From a virus (Duplodnaviria; Heunggongvirae; Uroviricota; Caudoviricetes), in IMG/VR virus record IMGVR_UViG_2609459790_000003: 20,393 nucleotides of DNA; one strand, 5' to 3'. The notes under the pieces are model-generated. The model saw only the letters and a list, made by a program, of their open reading frames with translations, did no database searches and was not told where the DNA came from. Positions 1,626 through 19,133 of this stretch are shown here, piece by piece (the first letter of the stretch is position 1; every line of letters starts with the position of its first letter). A program made the translations under genes and the position numbers.

Positions 1626-1661
1626 TTGCCAAAACAGAGAGAGCATTACTGTCTCTGGCAA
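1626..1661 (-). terminator. weak candidate intrinsic terminator overlapping the stop of the 95-aa ORF
   Basis: On the minus strand CAGAGA / UCUCUG form a 6-bp stem with an 11-nt loop, followed by UUUU; the stem is short. Confidence 0.25.
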
Positions 1662-1933
1662 TCTTTATCGCGATAACGCCTGAAGTACCCTCTCGCTTCC
1701 TCATCCATACCAAGAGCCGAATGAGTTCGCTTAACTGCCTGTCTTAAATCTCCGAATCTGTCTGTAGTTGCTGGTGGGCGTGCCGCCCTACGGATACATT
1801 CAGAGTGTCTGTTTGCTGCATGTTCACGTTCTTTATTGCCATCTGCCAGCGTCATGACTTCTGCCCATCGTGTGGCAGCTCTCCGGCATAGCCTTTTTGA
1901 CTCCAGCTCTTCAGCTTTCCTGTCACTTATCAT
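1646..1933 (-). CDS. hypothetical basic 95-aa protein
   Basis: ATG start with GAGAGG about 7 nt upstream; Arg/Glu-rich helical composition; lies 36 bp from iteron array A. No recognisable domain. Confidence 0.45.
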   Translation of the reverse strand: MISDRKAEELESKRLCRRAATRWAEVMTLADGNKEREHAANRHSECIRRAARPPATTDRFGDLRQAVKRTHSALGMDEEARGYFRRYRDKDCQRQ

Positions 1934-4713: not shown

Positions 4714-7440
4714 CTATTCCCATTCGCTAACATCTTTCATGCCACTGAGGGTAGCTACAATCCCGGCCCTTGTCAGTTTCACGAATTCTTCAGCCCCAAC
4801 GGCATCACGAATTGCTTTCATGGCAATTTTATTGGCCGAAAATCGTTTCTCTGCTGCGGCGATCGCTGCTGGTGATGCCCCTGCGCGCACTGCTTTTGTA
4901 GCTTCCTGAACGGCTTTCTCTATCGCATATCGACCACTTCTTGTCGCCCCAATCTTAGCCACAGTATTTCTCAGTGCGCCACCAGCAACCAAACCACTAA
5001 TCGAACCAATTACACCACCGCCAAAGCCTCCAGCGATCGCACCTGACTGTTGAACTCCGTTCATAATCACACCGACGATCTTTGGAAGGCCTGAATCGAG
5101 CGTTTTGAGAGCCTCAGTTGTTCTTCCCGTGCGCTCTACGTATCGCTGCGGTCTGGTGCTGGCTTTAGCGAGTACACCGAACTCTTTCATCATTCTACCG
5201 AGATCTGGCGCATGACGACTGATGGCGTTTACATTCTGCTGGGTCATGAGCTTGGCAAAATACTGGATACCAGACTCTTCACCGATTCCTCCCTTCTCTC
5301 CCTGCGCCACAGCATGCTGAAGAATAGATGCTATTGCTGGTTGGCGTTCTGCTTCCGGCAGCGCGGAGATAAGGCGGTGAAAAGCTCCCGTTCCAGTATT
5401 TGCGGATGCCTTAAGCGTATCGGCACCTTTTCTTACCATAGCGTCTGATGCGAGATCTCGACCAAAAACAGATTCGGCATTTTGTTTGGCGATAATGTAA
5501 CTTTTAGAGAGATCGTTAGCTTTCTGCCATTCTGTGAGGAAGTTTCCTTTTTCAGCCATGATGCGCATGTCATCAGTGATAGCTCTGCGCATTTCTCCGG
5601 CAATCCGGGCGGCATTGGCCTTACCTGCCCGGGTGTTTGCTTGTTCAGCATCAGCAAACTTAGCACGCCATGCCTTCATCCCGTCGAAGGTTATGCCGCC
5701 ACCTTGGTTGTTGGCAGCCTGAAACTGTTTCATCTCCGGGCTGAGTGGAACATTGGCTGCTTTTTCTGCTTGGACGACAGCCATCCCATTACTCATTTTC
5801 ATCCTTTCGCGTGGCATCGTGCTTCGCAGTTCTGCCCATGCCATATTCTCTGCTGTTTTCATATCACTGAGGCTCGCGATGATGCGCTCTTTAATTGCTG
5901 CGCTTTTTTCTGATGCGCTTCCAGACTCAGCACCGAAATCAGACAACTGCTTATTCAACTTTGAGGATATTTCATTGAAGGCCGTAAGGTGAGCATCCTG
6001 AACATTCCCAGGAGTTGATGCCAGAACACCTTCTGCTTGGGCAATTCCACGACTACCTGAGCGCATTCCAGGCGTCAGGGTGTTGATATTAATACCAGTG
6101 ATTTTCGCCGCCTTAGCGACATCATCTCTGACGTTTGATGCCTGCGATGCGATATGCTCTCGGCCTACGGCAGAACGCGCTGCTTTCGATACATCATTGG
6201 CGGTTTCCAGAGTATTTGCTGCCCCTAACACATGGCCTGATTGATTTGTATTACTCCGCAATACATCTCGCATTACGTCACTGGCTGTCTGTCCGCTCTT
6301 TATTAAAGCGCGTGCTCCTAGCGATCCTGCTAGGCCAATACCTGTCTCTTTTGCTAGGTCTTCTGGGCTGATCTGCCCGTTCTTTTGGGCGTTCACCAAT
6401 GTACCTGGCAGGTTTTCTGCCAACATACTAGCCACCTTTGTGGCCGCACGTTCAGCACGTGGAGCGTTGGCAACTGAAGAAGCTGCGGTAGCTGCCTTTC
6501 CTGCACCTAATCCTGTAATAAGGTAAGGTGCTAGCTGCTCACCAGCCTGCGCGTATGGATCTGTAGGTTGGTCTACTGGGCGAAAGACAGGTGATATGGG
6601 CGTGTATGTGCCATCACCCACACCAAGCTTCTGAGCTGCCCATGCTCCGGCTGATTGCGCCGCATTGACTACCCCCACGCCTGCGTCCATTACATCAAAC
6701 GGTATATTAGCAATCCCTCTGGCCATCTGCTCTGGCGCAGCTTTCAGTCCTGGCGAAAGATATTCCATCTCAGGATTAAGGTTAGACTTGGCTACTTGCT
6801 GCTGCGGTTCCCCGGCATTTTCATCGGCGAGAAACTGAGCTCTTTTCTGCTCCCATGAACTGGCTGTTGGTAGTCCTGCTTCTATGTTCTTAAATTGCTG
6901 ACGTTTTGCTTCCCATGCAGAAATATCTCCCACCTGAGAGATTTCTTTATCAAGCTCTGAGTAGTCAGGCTGCTGAAGATTGCGATGTTGACTGGTTTGT
7001 GCAAACTGCAAGATTTCACTGTCATCAGGGATTATTCCGGCATCTGCAAATTTACTTACGTAATTAGCCGTTTCATCTGGCAGTGTAGATTTACCGTTTC
7101 TGACGGCATTAATACGAGCATAGCCAGAATTATACCCAGCCAATGCCATACCTATATCACCAAATCGCTTCATTCCTTTATTGAGATGGTTTGCTGCGAT
7201 ATCCATTTGCTTTTCAAATGGCAGTGAGCGCGGATCAGTTCCACGATAACCAGCATCACTCATTACTGAGGGCATCAGTTGAGCAAATCCTCTAGCTCCT
7301 TTCGGTGACTCGGCACTTCCGTTACCACTAGATTCATTGCCAACTAATGTTTCCATCGTCCCTGATGGGAAACCATATTTTTCATCGAGATGACGGGAAT
7401 AGGCTTTCTGTTTTTCTGTCAGTTGTGCCATCATTGCCAT
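4714..7440 (-). CDS. 908-aa protein with N-terminal lytic transglycosylase (SLT) domain and long Ala/Gly/Gln-rich body
   Basis: N-terminus carries SLT motifs (ESSGN catalytic Glu-Ser, GFAQLMP, AGYNSGYARI). The remainder is helical and low-complexity with a Gly/Ala-rich C-terminus. Its start is adjacent to the stop of the upstream gene. Confidence 0.9.
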   Translation of the reverse strand: MAMMAQLTEKQKAYSRHLDEKYGFPSGTMETLVGNESSGNGSAESPKGARGFAQLMPSVMSDAGYRGTDPRSLPFEKQMDIAANHLNKGMKRFGDIGMALAGYNSGYARINAVRNGKSTLPDETANYVSKFADAGIIPDDSEILQFAQTSQHRNLQQPDYSELDKEISQVGDISAWEAKRQQFKNIEAGLPTASSWEQKRAQFLADENAGEPQQQVAKSNLNPEMEYLSPGLKAAPEQMARGIANIPFDVMDAGVGVVNAAQSAGAWAAQKLGVGDGTYTPISPVFRPVDQPTDPYAQAGEQLAPYLITGLGAGKAATAASSVANAPRAERAATKVASMLAENLPGTLVNAQKNGQISPEDLAKETGIGLAGSLGARALIKSGQTASDVMRDVLRSNTNQSGHVLGAANTLETANDVSKAARSAVGREHIASQASNVRDDVAKAAKITGININTLTPGMRSGSRGIAQAEGVLASTPGNVQDAHLTAFNEISSKLNKQLSDFGAESGSASEKSAAIKERIIASLSDMKTAENMAWAELRSTMPRERMKMSNGMAVVQAEKAANVPLSPEMKQFQAANNQGGGITFDGMKAWRAKFADAEQANTRAGKANAARIAGEMRRAITDDMRIMAEKGNFLTEWQKANDLSKSYIIAKQNAESVFGRDLASDAMVRKGADTLKASANTGTGAFHRLISALPEAERQPAIASILQHAVAQGEKGGIGEESGIQYFAKLMTQQNVNAISRHAPDLGRMMKEFGVLAKASTRPQRYVERTGRTTEALKTLDSGLPKIVGVIMNGVQQSGAIAGGFGGGVIGSISGLVAGGALRNTVAKIGATRSGRYAIEKAVQEATKAVRAGASPAAIAAAEKRFSANKIAMKAIRDAVGAEEFVKLTRAGIVATLSGMKDVSEWE

Positions 7441-8750
7441 CCCTTAAGTTTTGCCTGATAGTAACTTTCCGGCAGATAGCCATGTGCGGTCACATAATCC
7501 TTAACCAGTGAAGGATCCTGCAACAGCATTTTGGTATCAGTTTCTTCGTCCTTTGATTTGGTTACAGGAATACCGAGCCCGGCAATCTGTCGTTTCTGCA
7601 TTCGAATAATTACGTCCTGCGCTTTATTCAACTCTCGCAAAAATGCCTCATTGCTGGTTGCTGACTTAATGCCATTTTGAGATTGCATAAGGGCAGCCCT
7701 TTCCCCTTCGGTTGGGTTAGAGCCAAAAGTCCCTTTGAGGCTAGGCAGAATAACCTTTAGGTTGTATTCATCAGCTTTGGCGCGTAGGCTTCGTGTGTCT
7801 TCTGCTACATCAGGAAGGAATCCAAACCCCAGCGTCAGGGGGTTATAGTTCTGCGAGCGGGTAACGGCCGAAGGATGTTTCCCTACAATTCCCGCCAGTT
7901 CATGACCCACTTCAAGCGCAGAGTTCAAGGAGTCGATGTTACCTGTAACAGTATTAATTTTATCGTTCATCTTCTCCACTTTCGCCTGCTGTACCTTGCT
8001 CAGTTCAGCATTGAGCTTGTCTCTCTCGATGTCATTTTGAGCACGTCCAAGTCGTGCTTTCAGAACCATTTCTCTCGTGCGTAGTTGGTTATCGGATAGG
8101 ACTTTGAACTGCTCCATATCGAGACGCCGATTACCCTGTTCCGCATTAACCTGAGCATTATATGCAGATGTATCTGCGTTCTGCTGTGCAATGCTCTGCC
8201 CTTGCTGCTTCTCTTGAACACTAAAGTAACTATTTGGATCAGCATGGAGGTGGATGAGGTCAGTGATTCTGTTGAATTCCTGTGGGTCATTCTGCCAAGA
8301 CTGATAAACCTCTTCAGCAGGAAGACCAAATCGCTGTAATACTGGATTTGCCTGCTGAATGGCCTTCTGCATGGTCAGTGGATCTCCAGTTTGTGACGCA
8401 AGACGCAGATTCATGGCAGCGTCAGCGGTCTGTCGATTTTGCTCAGCATCAATGAATCCCATCTGTTTTTGAGAATCAGCCATAAACTGGGGATACTGGG
8501 CCATTAACTTCTGCACGCCAACACGATCATTATTAGCTACCGCACTACCCAACCGTGCCTGATATTCTTTTAGCTGCTGGGAAATTTGCGCCTGCTGATT
8601 AATCTCAGCAACGCCTCTTAGCCCCTGTAGCGCCATTAAACCTACGTTTGGCTGCTGCTGATACTGCACAGGCTGAGGAACGGAAGAACGAGGAGCATTA
8701 TCATTTTGCGGTGCCATGCTAGGCAGCCCGCCAAGTTGCCATGTCGTCAT
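7431..8750 (-). CDS. 439-aa Gln-rich coiled-coil protein
   Basis: ATG at 8748-8750 overlaps the upstream stop (TAATG); Q-rich helical composition; no catalytic motif seen. Confidence 0.85.
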   Translation of the reverse strand: MTTWQLGGLPSMAPQNDNAPRSSVPQPVQYQQQPNVGLMALQGLRGVAEINQQAQISQQLKEYQARLGSAVANNDRVGVQKLMAQYPQFMADSQKQMGFIDAEQNRQTADAAMNLRLASQTGDPLTMQKAIQQANPVLQRFGLPAEEVYQSWQNDPQEFNRITDLIHLHADPNSYFSVQEKQQGQSIAQQNADTSAYNAQVNAEQGNRRLDMEQFKVLSDNQLRTREMVLKARLGRAQNDIERDKLNAELSKVQQAKVEKMNDKINTVTGNIDSLNSALEVGHELAGIVGKHPSAVTRSQNYNPLTLGFGFLPDVAEDTRSLRAKADEYNLKVILPSLKGTFGSNPTEGERAALMQSQNGIKSATSNEAFLRELNKAQDVIIRMQKRQIAGLGIPVTKSKDEETDTKMLLQDPSLVKDYVTAHGYLPESYYQAKLKGWQ

Positions 8751-9427
8751 TAGAATCCAAGCCCCCCAACAAGACCAATAAGCCCACCACCAATAGCCCC
8801 GGCGACATTACCTATACCCGGAACAACGGAACCAAGTTGCGCACCCGCTAAAGCGCCTGATGCCGCCCCACCAATACCACGCGCAAGACTGGATGGCTGC
8901 TGCGCCTGACCTGCACGAATAGCGCCAAGCCCCTGCAAGAGTTGTCCGGTATTATTGGCGTAGTTTTGCCCTGCTGTTGCCTGCCCTGATGCCGCATTCA
9001 TCCCGACATTTAGCAGGTTTCCATAATTTTGCATTTGCCCACTAAGCCAATTGTTATAAAGCATGGGCGCAATGGAAGATAACTGGTTACTGGTAGCTGT
9101 TGAGCCAAGCCCCCCGGTAGCTTCTGCTGAGACAAGGTTCTGATAACGGGCCTGATCTGCCTGTGTTTTATATAAACCAGAACCAAAGAAATCATTCGCG
9201 GCTTTATTCTGCCCTTCCAGAGTCATCAGTCCTTGCAGTTGTTGTAAAGCAGGCAATCCGACTTCTGCATACGGCTTGAGATTATTCATCACCGTATTCC
9301 ACTGCTCGCGCTGCAAATCAATTGCCTGCTGCTGGGCCTTCGCCTGGGCTTTAGAGGCACCACCATCACCGCCTTTTTCGTATACGGCACGATTGAGATG
9401 TTTATGAGCTATATGGGTAATTAACAT
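8750..9427 (-). CDS. 225-aa protein with C-terminal glycine-zipper hydrophobic segment
   Basis: C-terminus GIGGAASGALAGAQLGSVVPGIGNVAGAIGGGLIGLVGGLGF; ATG overlaps the stop of the 153-aa gene. Confidence 0.85.
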   Translation of the reverse strand: MLITHIAHKHLNRAVYEKGGDGGASKAQAKAQQQAIDLQREQWNTVMNNLKPYAEVGLPALQQLQGLMTLEGQNKAANDFFGSGLYKTQADQARYQNLVSAEATGGLGSTATSNQLSSIAPMLYNNWLSGQMQNYGNLLNVGMNAASGQATAGQNYANNTGQLLQGLGAIRAGQAQQPSSLARGIGGAASGALAGAQLGSVVPGIGNVAGAIGGGLIGLVGGLGF

Positions 9428-9882
9428 TCGCTGAGTTCCTTATATTGTTGCCGTGTTAACTGATAAAGCGTTACGCCGACGGGTTTACCACATCTGATAT
9501 ATGCATCGGCCAGGTGACCAACACGGGTAGCGCCAAGCAAACGGATAATTGCCCGTCCGTATTTCGTGGTGTCAGGAACCATGGTGATGCTGTTAAGGAA
9601 TGGTGAGTTTTCGAGAAGCCATTTGCAGAACAATCGATGCCCTTGCAGTGCATATTCACCACGGAATCCGGGGTCGTACACCGCATGGCATTCAACAATG
9701 CTATGCCAGAAGTTACGCACTTCATGAACGCCTGTCAGCACTAATCCTTCGTAGATGCCGAGATATACCGCATCAGGCTTGATGTAGTACGTGTGCCCCG
9801 GCTCAACAATATTTTCGGTATTGCCAGGCTCGTTAAGAAAGGCCTGTAATCGCACCGGGTTATCAATAAATTTTAGTTCCAT
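9421..9882 (-). CDS. 153-aa protein, first large gene of the module
   Basis: ATG at 9880-9882, 16 nt after the stop of the small upstream ORF; compact globular composition; no motif recognised. Confidence 0.8.
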   Translation of the reverse strand: MELKFIDNPVRLQAFLNEPGNTENIVEPGHTYYIKPDAVYLGIYEGLVLTGVHEVRNFWHSIVECHAVYDPGFRGEYALQGHRLFCKWLLENSPFLNSITMVPDTTKYGRAIIRLLGATRVGHLADAYIRCGKPVGVTLYQLTRQQYKELSEC

Positions 9883-9898: not shown

Positions 9899-10060
9899 TC
9901 ACATACAGCCTGCCAGCGCCTTATCTATTAACCCTCGTGCAATTTCATGCAGAGTTGGCGCTACTCCAATTCCTGATTTTTTACGCTGCTCTTCCTGAAT
10001 TTTCTTTATCGCTTCCATTTGCTTCTCACTTATCAATACCGGCTTTACTGAAATAGCCAT
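9899..10060 (-). CDS. 53-aa putative ribbon-helix-helix DNA-binding protein
   Basis: Below the ORF-track length cutoff. ATG at 10058-10060 with AAGGGGG 5 nt upstream; MAISVKPVLISEKQMEAIKKIQEEQRKKSGIGVAPTLHEIARGLIDKALAGCM has a strand, helix, G-x-T, helix layout. Confidence 0.45.
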   Translation of the reverse strand: MAISVKPVLISEKQMEAIKKIQEEQRKKSGIGVAPTLHEIARGLIDKALAGCM

Positions 10061-10075
10061 AACGCCCCCTTAGAA

Positions 10076-10099
10076 CTGTATAAAACAACAGTTATTATA
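10076..10099 (-). promoter_or_regulatory. candidate promoter (-10 TATAAT) with overlapping LexA-like box
   Basis: Minus-strand TATAAT at 10094-10099; immediately downstream lies aaCTGTataaaacaACAGtt (10074-10093), CTGT-N8-ACAG, closely resembling the dinD box. No good -35 hexamer. Confidence 0.4.
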
Positions 10100-10154
10100 G
10101 TTTCGCAAATCGCAATATTCATCATCGTAATTGCAAAATATGAAACAAATAGCA

Positions 10155-10188
10155 CAAAAAAATGCCACCGCTCAGTAGCTGGTGGCAT
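10155..10188 (-). terminator. rho-independent terminator closing the primase operon
   Basis: On the minus strand AUGCCACC / GGUGGCAU form an 8-bp stem with an 11-nt loop, followed by UUUUUUU. Confidence 0.5.
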
Positions 10189-10381
10189 CGTTCTGTGTGT
10201 CAGGTTTTGACAGGTTTTTTATGGACTCTAAAAACTATATTTATGGTGTCGCATTACTCTTCACGGCAGGCGCTTTTCAGTTCTGCCCTTGCTTCTGGCT
10301 CCATTGGTAATTTGATTCGCGATCAGCTATGCGGATGGTTTGCTGAACAGGCATAACAACTTCTCAGGGGCTGTTTTCTGA

Positions 10382-10458
10382 ACTACGAAAATTTCGTAGT
10401 GCTCACTTTCAAAAACGTCACGCCCTTGTACACAGGATTTTACGAAAGTCTCGTAAAA
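10382..10458. promoter_or_regulatory. two palindromes sharing a TACGAAA half-site
   Basis: ACTACGAAAATTTCGTAGT (10382-10400) and TTTTACGAAAGTCTCGTAAAA (10438-10458), between the terminator and iteron array B. Confidence 0.3.
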
Positions 10459-10508
10459 CACTCTCTGATGCCAGCCAGGTGTTGTGCGCATCAATTCAGT
10501 CACATTGT

Positions 10509-10620
10509 GTTGGTTCAAAATACCGTGTTGTTGGTTCAGTGTTGGTTCAATAAAAAGAATAAAATCATTATAAAACAATACTCTTTACAAATTGAACCAA
10601 CTGAACCAACTGAACCAACA
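10509..10620. repeat. iteron array B: six copies of GTTGGTTCA / TGAACCAAC
   Basis: GTTGGTTCA at 10509, 10530 and 10541, then three tandem TGAACCAAC at 10593-10619. Inverted copy of array A; lies 25 bp beyond the primase stop codon. Confidence 0.85.
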
Positions 10621-10644
10621 CCTTTTCTACGCACATGAAGAAGC

Positions 10645-15582: not shown

Positions 15583-16431
15583 GTGCCACCTCCATGCGGA
15601 TACGACCAGCAAAAAAGCAGACGTGATCGCGCACCAGAGAACGGCGAGCATCGCGTTCAGACTCGGCAGCAATATGATGAATTTTGGCGGTAATTGTCGG
15701 GCAATCGCGGCGAACTGCGGCGATAATCCAGATAAATTGCGGTTTTTGGGTAGGGGTAGTAGCCAGCATGTGGCAGCCTCCTTGTACTGGGAATTCTTCC
15801 CACCACCGGAGCTGCGAAACTCGCTGGTGGTGGACTGAACAGAGTTCGCAGTACCGGCGTACAAGGAAACCGGCCAGCCTTTCGGCTGCCCTGTCCAGCC
15901 CACCATAATTTTGCAAGCGACGCGGATTATAACCACATCACTGAAAAAAGTGTGAGTCTGGCTAACGGCACAAAAAAAGACGCTCGGCGCGTCATGTGTC
16001 GCCTCGTACATTTCCGGGCTGCGAAACCCGGCACCCGTTTTATGAGGTGCCTTATAACCATAAACCGTGTTGCCGCATAACGACAAGCTCTTTTTTATGG
16101 ACTCCGAAAACTCACTATTGGAAGCACCAGATGCACAATACATCGCGCTCATTTCGTTAACGTCGCGCGTGTGGACGAAGGTTTTTGTGGAGCCACTACG
16201 CGAGCAGAGAAAGCCATCTACGACCAGAAATTCTCTGGCGCAGCCGCTGACCCTCTCAACGCTAACACCATCGACCGTAATTTCTGACATAGTTAAGGCA
16301 TCCGCTCCTACCACCAGCAAATGATAAACTTTGCTTGCATCTGCTGTATTAATGCCTGATTTTGCTGTCATATTGCTGGATTTTGGCGACATACCAGTCA
16401 GTGAAAATATCTTCTTCTGGGCGGTTAGCAT
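15364..16431 (-). CDS. hypothetical protein; 355-codon open frame, true 3' end uncertain
   Basis: ATG at 16429-16431 with GGAGG 7 nt upstream. Both other minus-strand frames are closed by stops between 16431 and about 15940, so this frame is coding there. It stays open to 15364, but beyond about 15770 the composition suggests nested small genes or a frameshift. Confidence 0.35.
15575..15769 (-). CDS. hypothetical small protein (64 aa) in alternate frame
   Basis: ATG at 15767-15769 with AAGGAGG 7 nt upstream; protein-like composition ([22 protein letters not shown]...), whereas the long ORF's frame over the same bases is L/S/P/W-rich. Confidence 0.4.
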   Translation of the reverse strand: MLATTPTQKPQFIWIIAAVRRDCPTITAKIHHIAAESERDARRSLVRDHVCFFAGRIRMEVAHD

Positions 16432-19038: not shown

Positions 19039-19133
19039 TGCGTCACCTTTTACGCTGCGCCTTATTTTGTGATTGAGCCAGGCGGTAAGGCTTCCCGCTT
19101 TTCGCCCCGTCGAGCTAGGCTCAATCTATTCAG

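Follow-up and report, generated by a model that had tools for sequence, protein, structure and literature searches.

Does the SOS response of the host decide when a mobile genetic element makes virion proteins of phage origin? The question is raised by a LexA-type box at the head of a set of DNA-ejection genes in a stretch of viral DNA of 20,393 nucleotides (the window, by which we mean the whole stretch that was analysed). According to the original prediction, this box makes the ejection genes an independent SOS-repressed unit. The window corresponds to an integrative P4/PICI-like island located between yicC and dinD of Escherichia coli. Its genes include those for a tyrosine integrase, an AlpA-type regulator, AntA, Ash and a TOPRIM-DUF927 primase, and it also carries an int-alpA RNA, a C4 RNA, an isrK RNA and GTTGGTTCA iterons after the primase stop codon. 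No capsid, terminase or lysis gene was found in the island, which, judged by its gene content, appears to be satellite-like.

A LexA-type box in front of P22-type ejection genes

The features of the ejection operon and of the region that precedes it are as follows, in window coordinates:

4714-7440, minus strand: fusion of 908 residues joining an N-terminal SLT (lytic transglycosylase) domain to a gp16-type DNA transfer protein (PF01464; phrog_770, E = 1.8e-120)
7431-8750, minus strand: P22 gp20-like ejection protein (PF16928, E = 3.7e-22)
8750-9427, minus strand: P22 gp7-like ejection protein (PF25688, E = 1.9e-72)
9421-9882, minus strand: P22 gp14-like protein (DUF2824; PF11039, E = 1.7e-60; phrog_651)
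9899-10060, minus strand: first gene of the operon, 53 amino acids, predicted ribbon-helix-helix (RHH) fold
10065-10071, minus strand: ribosome-binding site AAGGGGG of the first gene
10074-10093, no strand: LexA (SOS) box AACTGTATAAAACAACAGTT, with the core CTGT-N8-ACAG at 10076-10091; heterology index (HI) 8.19; position conserved in relatives
10094-10099, minus strand: -10 hexamer TATAAT, directly abutting the box and kept in most relatives
10100-10146, no strand: 47-bp inverted repeat TTTC-N7-GCAAT ... ATTGC-N7-GAAA, which may serve a second regulator, perhaps the RHH protein, as operator
10117-10122, minus strand: weak putative -35 element (ATGAAT, spacer of 17 nt), which did not reach the cut-off of the promoter scan
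10156-10188, minus strand: intrinsic terminator (GC-rich hairpin and U7) closing the upstream primase/ori unit

The box, written above as it reads on the plus strand, has the palindromic core and the exact spacing of the gammaproteobacterial (E. coli-type) LexA/SOS box. The original prediction had recognized this core, which is indeed present at 10076-10091, but the interval that it gave for the site, 10076-10099, takes in the 16-nt core and the -10 hexamer and fails to cover the full 20-mer (10074-10093). Just two matches to CTGT-N8-ACAG occur in the window, for an expected count of 0.29, and two or more matches were obtained in 2 of 100 shuffled sequences. The second match, at 871-886, is the box of dinD, which lies just upstream of the dinD start and reads AACTGTATATAAATACAGTT on the gene strand. 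The close resemblance claimed between the two boxes amounts to identity at 17 of 20 positions. The idea that the island box is a copy of the neighbouring dinD box, or functionally linked to it, was nevertheless rejected, because the same island with its box is found at another chromosomal site in strain 214-4 and also in other genera. None of the papers in the literature that was searched prints the sequence of the box.

The strength of the site was estimated on the published HI scale. The matrix was recovered by regression on 140 sequence/HI pairs from PSOSP Table S1 (PMC12527982); the additive weights of the positions obtained in this way reproduce the published values exactly (rmse 1e-5). 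On this scale, the HI is 8.19 for the box at 10074-10093 and 3.34 for that of dinD, and the window's next CTG-N10-CAG site has a value of 16.86. The same table gives 7.04 for the box of yebG (whose sequence, TACTGTATAAAATCACAGTT, closely resembles that of the island box), 8.32 for the second lexA box, 8.61 for ftsK, 8.80 for uvrD and 12.09 for polB; the Mean-Shift binding class for E. coli K-12 ends at HI 13.60, the class boundary lying between 13.60 and 13.95 (PMC12527982). The island box is thus near the second lexA box, ftsK and uvrD, well under the K-12 boundary of about 13.6-13.9 and inside the functional E. coli range. A second matrix, derived from a set of 29 E. coli boxes, assigned HI values of 6.1 to the box, 2.0 to dinD and 14.6 to the next-best 20-mer of the window; the value of 6.1 is superseded by that of 8.19 on the published scale. 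In a first-order Markov simulation, about 0.01 sites with HI <= 8.2 are expected per 20.4-kb window and about 7e-5 per 140 nt at this intergenic composition. The box is therefore real, far beyond what chance would produce.

The operon behind the box is tightly packed, its genes overlapping or lying 16 nt apart. All four families of the P22-type ejection module (4/4) are represented, in the P22 order and with intact frames, together with an extra SLT domain. The likeness to the late operon of P22, in which the genes run 14-7-20-16, thus extends to both the gene order and the protein families. However, in P22-like phages the ejection genes follow the tail-needle gene within the late operon and lack a promoter of their own, whereas in the island they are detached, headed by the RHH gene and provided with their own terminator, predicted promoter and LexA box. 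At the nucleotide level, the ejection genes are 66-85% identical in parts to those of P22-like podoviruses, and the phages that match them include Louie, Kapi1, CUS-3, epsilon34, HK620 and phiSG1. Along the cargo, the similarity to phages ends exactly at the gp14 start, and the promoter and the 53-aa gene had no match in 50,697 phage records. Therefore, the regulatory head belongs to the island and not to a phage late operon. The view that the locus is the degraded remnant of a P22 prophage was rejected: none of the phage records contains the head, and the architecture recurs with other cargo. In enterotoxigenic E. coli (ETEC) H10407, the ejection gene behind the same boxed promoter is a pseudogene with an internal stop codon.

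The predicted promoter and its second inverted repeat

Read on the minus strand, the regulatory region consists of a hairpin (GCCACC...GGTGGC) followed by U7, an interval of 56 nt that contains the long inverted repeat, the hexamer TATAAT (10099-10094) and, without any gap, the 20-mer box; then come TTCTAAGGGGGCGTT and the ATG at 10060, 13 nt from the box. Relative to the predicted transcription start, near 10087 on the minus strand, the box would thus extend from about -6 to +14. The original description of the site, with a minus-strand TATAAT directly before it, a strong terminator 60 bp upstream and a gene start just downstream, proved accurate: the hexamer is perfect, the start codon is where it was placed and the terminator, with a hairpin folding energy of -26.2 kcal/mol (z = -6.9), ends 56 nt upstream of the -10. 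This terminator is structurally conserved and separates the ejection unit from the primase/ori region.

The promoter itself is predicted. Its -35 element, ATGAAT, matches the consensus at 3 of 6 positions, and it is because of this weakness that a strict scan for consensus sigma-70 promoters reported none at the box. We retained the promoter as a prediction on account of the perfect and conserved TATAAT. A promoter on the plus strand (TTAGAA-17-TATTAT), which would have the box in its spacer, was rejected because TTAGAA is not retained in the Leclercia-type relatives.

Given a good LexA box placed directly on a promoter, the ejection genes are probably induced by DNA damage. The explanation that we consider the best, and in which we have fairly good confidence, is that the box is a functional operator, presumably bound by the host LexA, on the promoter of an island operon with the composition RHH-gp14-gp7-gp20-SLT-gp16. 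The early region of the island (AlpA, AntA, Ash and C4 RNA) holds no LexA-type site, the best other site scoring HI 16.9, and therefore the SOS signal would enter the island only at this promoter.

A second element may well contribute to the control of the operon. The arms of the 47-bp inverted repeat are separated by 13 nt; the repeat stops 0-1 nt short of TATAAT and spans the weak -35. Most relatives retain it, even those that lack a LexA box, and it occurs in more lineages than the box does. This wider conservation means that LexA is probably not the sole control, and the presence of a second operator-like inverted repeat over the weak -35 suggests additional regulation. In three loci (L009, L010 and L013), the left arm of the repeat appears direct rather than inverted.

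A candidate for the factor that would bind there is the product of the first gene. The beta-alpha-alpha fold predicted for this 53-aa protein is that of the RHH superfamily, and the known proteins named with the predicted fold are the RHH domain of PutA, HP0222, ParD, NikR, Omega, CopG proteins and Arc. By sequence, the protein could be assigned to no curated RHH family: it has no match to Pfam (E <= 10), PHROG or PDB profiles, and hhalign comparisons with CopG and Arc were not significant. The RHH label of the original prediction thus is supported by the predicted fold and not by sequence homology; no sequence method assigns the protein to a family. The family is small, with 60 clusters among 1.84 billion representatives. 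It is also conserved in lineages where the LexA-like palindrome is missing, which makes the 47-bp repeat the better candidate for the RHH operator; we regard the repeat as likelier to fill this function than the palindrome of the LexA box. The RHH protein, if it folds as modelled, probably feeds back on the repeat.

Since the -35 is weak and a larger conserved repeat overlaps it, release of LexA alone may not suffice to fire the promoter. Pushed further, this leads to a model in which LexA binds but a second factor at the 47-bp repeat, either the RHH repressor or an activator encoded by the island or the helper, mainly governs the promoter. SOS induction would then be necessary and insufficient, as in an AND gate, and the module would be no simple independent SOS unit. 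The distribution of the repeat (10100-10146) in more lineages than the box, the poor -35 with no consensus promoter in the scan and the fold of the first gene product, typical of autoregulators, are all in line with such a model. On the other hand, a perfect TATAAT with AT-rich upstream DNA can work unaided, the binder of the 47-bp repeat is a candidate only, and plain feedback repression that merely tempers SOS induction would fit the data too. We therefore hold the second-factor model to be possible, and well behind direct control by LexA in probability.

The box in relatives and the exchange of cargo

When the RHH protein was used as query, some 70 loci were retrieved from metagenomes, genomes and contigs of viruses, together with a few distant members. 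Boxes of the canonical form sit at the same place, directly after TATAAT, in Escherichia, Leclercia and Pantoea genomes and in unassigned viral or metagenome contigs, with HI values of 7.4-12.4:

E. coli type: AACTGTTGTTTTATACAGTT or GACTG..., HI 8.19 / 9.53
Leclercia adecarboxylata and unassigned viral/metagenome contigs: xxCTGTATCGTTATACAGTG, HI 9.96-12.36
L019: TACTGTATAAAATAACAGGA, HI 7.37
Pantoea (L007): AGCTGTATAAATAAACAGGG, HI 8.21

All canonical boxes have the same CTGT and ACAG but differ in their flanks and spacers, four spacer types being found (CTGTTGTTTTATACAG, CTGTATCGTTATACAG, CTGTATAAAATAACAG and CTGTATAAATAAACAG). This pattern is as would be expected of a LexA operator. In 34 E. 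coli-type loci, a set picked by the presence of the box, none of the 16 core positions varies, compared with 31 of 132 aligned positions overall; yet no E. coli-type promoter without a box was found. The succession of terminator (hairpin and T-run), -10 and box also recurs in relatives whose sequences differ.

The site is thus conserved at orthologous promoters, and it is lost or altered in other lineages. A Leclercia sp. has a degenerate site (TTGT...AGAG), L073 has ATGT-N8-ACAG at the box position, and Pectobacterium, L058, L059 and L075 have no site at that position. In a Klebsiella-like group and in the L023-L025 group, the palindrome is one base short (CTGTATAAATAT-CAG or CTG-ATAAATATACAG). 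It follows from these altered or absent boxes that LexA control is specific to certain lineages and not universal to the cassette.

Could the box be a mere likeness of a LexA site, a relic or a product of chance in intergenic DNA rich in A and T, with no regulatory effect? The motif CTGT-N8-ACAG can arise in AT-rich spacers, and some lineages have lost the box while retaining the operon. Against this stand the very low number of such sites expected by simulation, both per window and per 140 nt, the location of the box exactly on the predicted promoter, its retention with different spacers in at least three genera and the invariance of its core amid variable flanks in the 34 E. coli-type loci. 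We consider a chance or relic origin to be highly improbable.

A different reading of the palindrome is that it serves as the operator of an island protein, for instance the RHH protein, and has only a likeness to a LexA site, with no role for LexA. A TGTAT-rich, partly palindromic sequence does persist in relatives in which the LexA core or its spacing is broken, and the form CTG-N9-CAG is identical among loci with different upstream DNA. However, the box matches LexA-specific positions beyond the core (the consensus ATACAGT half-site, the flanking A/T and the exact N8), its HI equals that of proven sites, CTGT and ACAG are held at the exact spacing in four spacer variants, and lineages devoid of such a palindrome still conserve the RHH family. 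Taken together, these points render an island-protein operator unlikely at this position, and a functional LexA site remains the reading that we prefer for the E. coli-type box.

The shortened palindrome deserves mention by itself. CTG-N9-CAG is located about 10-30 nt upstream of the RHH start in L061, L014, L020, L067 and L023-L025, and its sequence is the same across these loci, the upstream DNA of which differs. Its conservation hints at a reader of this DNA other than LexA.

The original claim of an independent SOS-repressed unit finds support in silico in the recurring arrangement of terminator, -10 and box, in an HI within the functional range, in the tight packing of the genes and in the lack of any other LexA-type site. 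It should nonetheless be qualified, as far as the sequences tell, by the second and more conserved control element and by the several lineages that do without a canonical box.

What lies behind the conserved head is not constant. P22-type ejection cargo is itself variable, the gp20/gp16 alleles of islands that are otherwise near-identical being only 48% identical. In seven such loci (L003, L026, L028-L031 and L033), the islands are near-identical elsewhere and their gp20 is only 48% identical to window positions 7431-8750, an instance of mosaic exchange. Among the loci L005, L006, L007, L012, L019, L020, L022, L054, L059, L061, L067 and L072-L075, the cargo behind the promoter and the RHH gene is swapped: it comprises P22 ejection proteins, internal virion proteins of the T7 type, tape-measure proteins accompanied by small chaperone-like genes, or a baseplate hub, and one group has a HEAGH-motif protein instead. 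Except for the HEAGH-motif protein, these cargo types are proteins that deliver DNA into the cell. The canonical box is present in all loci with P22-type cargo and in none of the six with T7-type cargo, and loci with tape-measure cargo are mixed. This distribution agrees with the hypothesis that SOS gating is retained where a temperate phage inducible by SOS is the presumed helper; it is no more than a hypothesis because the independent lineages are few.

A broader proposal, which we put forward tentatively, is that the box belongs to a "cargo head" conserved among P4/PICI-like islands of Enterobacterales and made up of the terminator, the 47-bp inverted repeat, TATAAT, the LexA box and the RHH gene. 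Behind it would stand interchangeable delivery sets, each specific to a helper type. The islands would in this way supply their own delivery proteins to helpers, with SOS timing where the helper is SOS-inducible, for the purpose of spreading or of sabotaging the helper. No description of such a strategy, in which a satellite supplies delivery proteins, was found in the literature searched, nor, in a search that was not exhaustive, any description of the box, the promoter or the cargo cassette.

LexA-controlled counterparts and the island context

Direct control by LexA, the reading that we favour, can be put in the form of a scheme; what it says of binding by LexA, of the point where transcription begins, of induction by SOS, of the function of the RHH protein and of the use of the products in helper virions is inferred from the sequence. 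In the undamaged cell, a LexA dimer would occupy the region from about -6 to +14, just past TATAAT, and block RNA polymerase. Upon DNA damage, activated RecA would promote self-cleavage of LexA and the promoter would open. The ejection set would then be made from the integrated island, at the time when SOS-inducible P22-like prophages, the presumed helpers, assemble their particles. The RHH protein, which is encoded first, would probably feed back at the 47-bp repeat over the weak -35.

The switch is ordinary in kind and unusual in its place. The chromosomal SOS boxes of E. coli (dinD, yebG, polB, uvrD and the second lexA box) show the same 20-nt palindrome of the TACTG(TA)5CAGTA type with exact spacing, HI values in the functional range and a placement over -10/+1, as does the island box on its predicted promoter. 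Unlike them, the latter came with a horizontally acquired island, which about 9% of the complete E. coli genomes carry, and lies outside the core SOS regulon; it would regulate phage-derived virion genes and not repair functions. LexA also controls switches of mobile elements, such as the antirepressor (tum) of coliphage 186, the antirepressor of N15 and the rstA promoter of CTXphi. The antirepressor genes of the Gifsy prophages form another LexA-controlled switch (PMC3121763). What the island shares with these systems is a mobile element with a single host LexA box on one key promoter and, by implication, the direct sensing of damage. The prophage boxes, however, control the induction of the element, that is, the choice between lysogeny and lysis, whereas the island box sits at structural cargo.

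The nearest precedent is operon I of the staphylococcal pathogenicity islands (SaPIs), in which a satellite has its packaging and morphogenesis genes regulated by LexA (Ubeda et al. 2007, as cited in PMC3152322). As far as that secondary account describes it, operon I places genes that interact with helper virions under the host LexA and is expressed when SOS induces the helper prophages, in which it resembles the arrangement proposed here. The two differ in phylum and in LexA motif, and the E. coli island is a putative satellite. Operon I encodes terS and proteins that remodel capsid size, while the island operon encodes DNA-ejection proteins. The genes of the latter are homologues of P22 gp14, gp7, gp20 and gp16, and show no homology to those of operon I (terS, cpmA/B, ptiA and others). 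SaPI operon I is an analogue and not a homologue.

If the box is functional, the E. coli LexA regulon gains one more member from the accessory genome, and this would be the first indication of a satellite-like island of Gram-negative bacteria coupling virion-related cargo directly to SOS. The surrounding cassette is the more interesting lead than the box itself: it is an undescribed arrangement by which islands carry ejection, internal-virion or tape-measure proteins, which decide the entry of packaged DNA into a new cell. Should the cargo be built into helper particles, host range could change, as could escape from superinfection exclusion or interference with the helper.

Several other features of the island and of its distribution were recorded. 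Rfam matches above the gathering score correspond to a C4 antisense RNA (15823-15910, minus strand), an isrK RNA (15973-16050, minus strand) and an int-alpA RNA (19059-19125, minus strand), and point to an RNA immunity module of the P1/P4 type beside the ash and antA genes. Two clusters of GTTGGTTCA iterons, inverted relative to each other, at 10507-10550 and 10587-10621, just past the primase stop, form a probable replication origin. Nearby, the palindrome TACGAAAnTnTCGTA is present in two copies (10384-10398 and 10441-10455), and the interval from the origin to the terminator holds a small hydrophobic frame, MDSKNYIYGVALLFTAGAFQFCPCFWLHW (10222-10311, plus strand), for which no ribosome-binding site is obvious.

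A 316-bp segment containing the 53-aa gene and the promoter is present in 499 of 5,426 complete E. coli genomes (~9%), including those of 83972 and ETEC H10407. Strain CV839-06 is a carrier too, and K-12 lacks the island. E. coli 214-4 (L001) harbours a second copy of the island near paoD, in which the gp16-like gene and antA are split by IS66 elements. The replicase of the H10407 island (L071) is a DUF5906 protein and not of the TOPRIM-DUF927 type. Finally, a regulator of the PerC family is encoded near the cassette, at 1646-1933 (minus strand) in the window, 1359-1640 in L071, 1441-1707 in L072 and 2077-2352 in L075; its position relative to the cargo varies, the gene being found to one side or the other in these distant relatives and the window.
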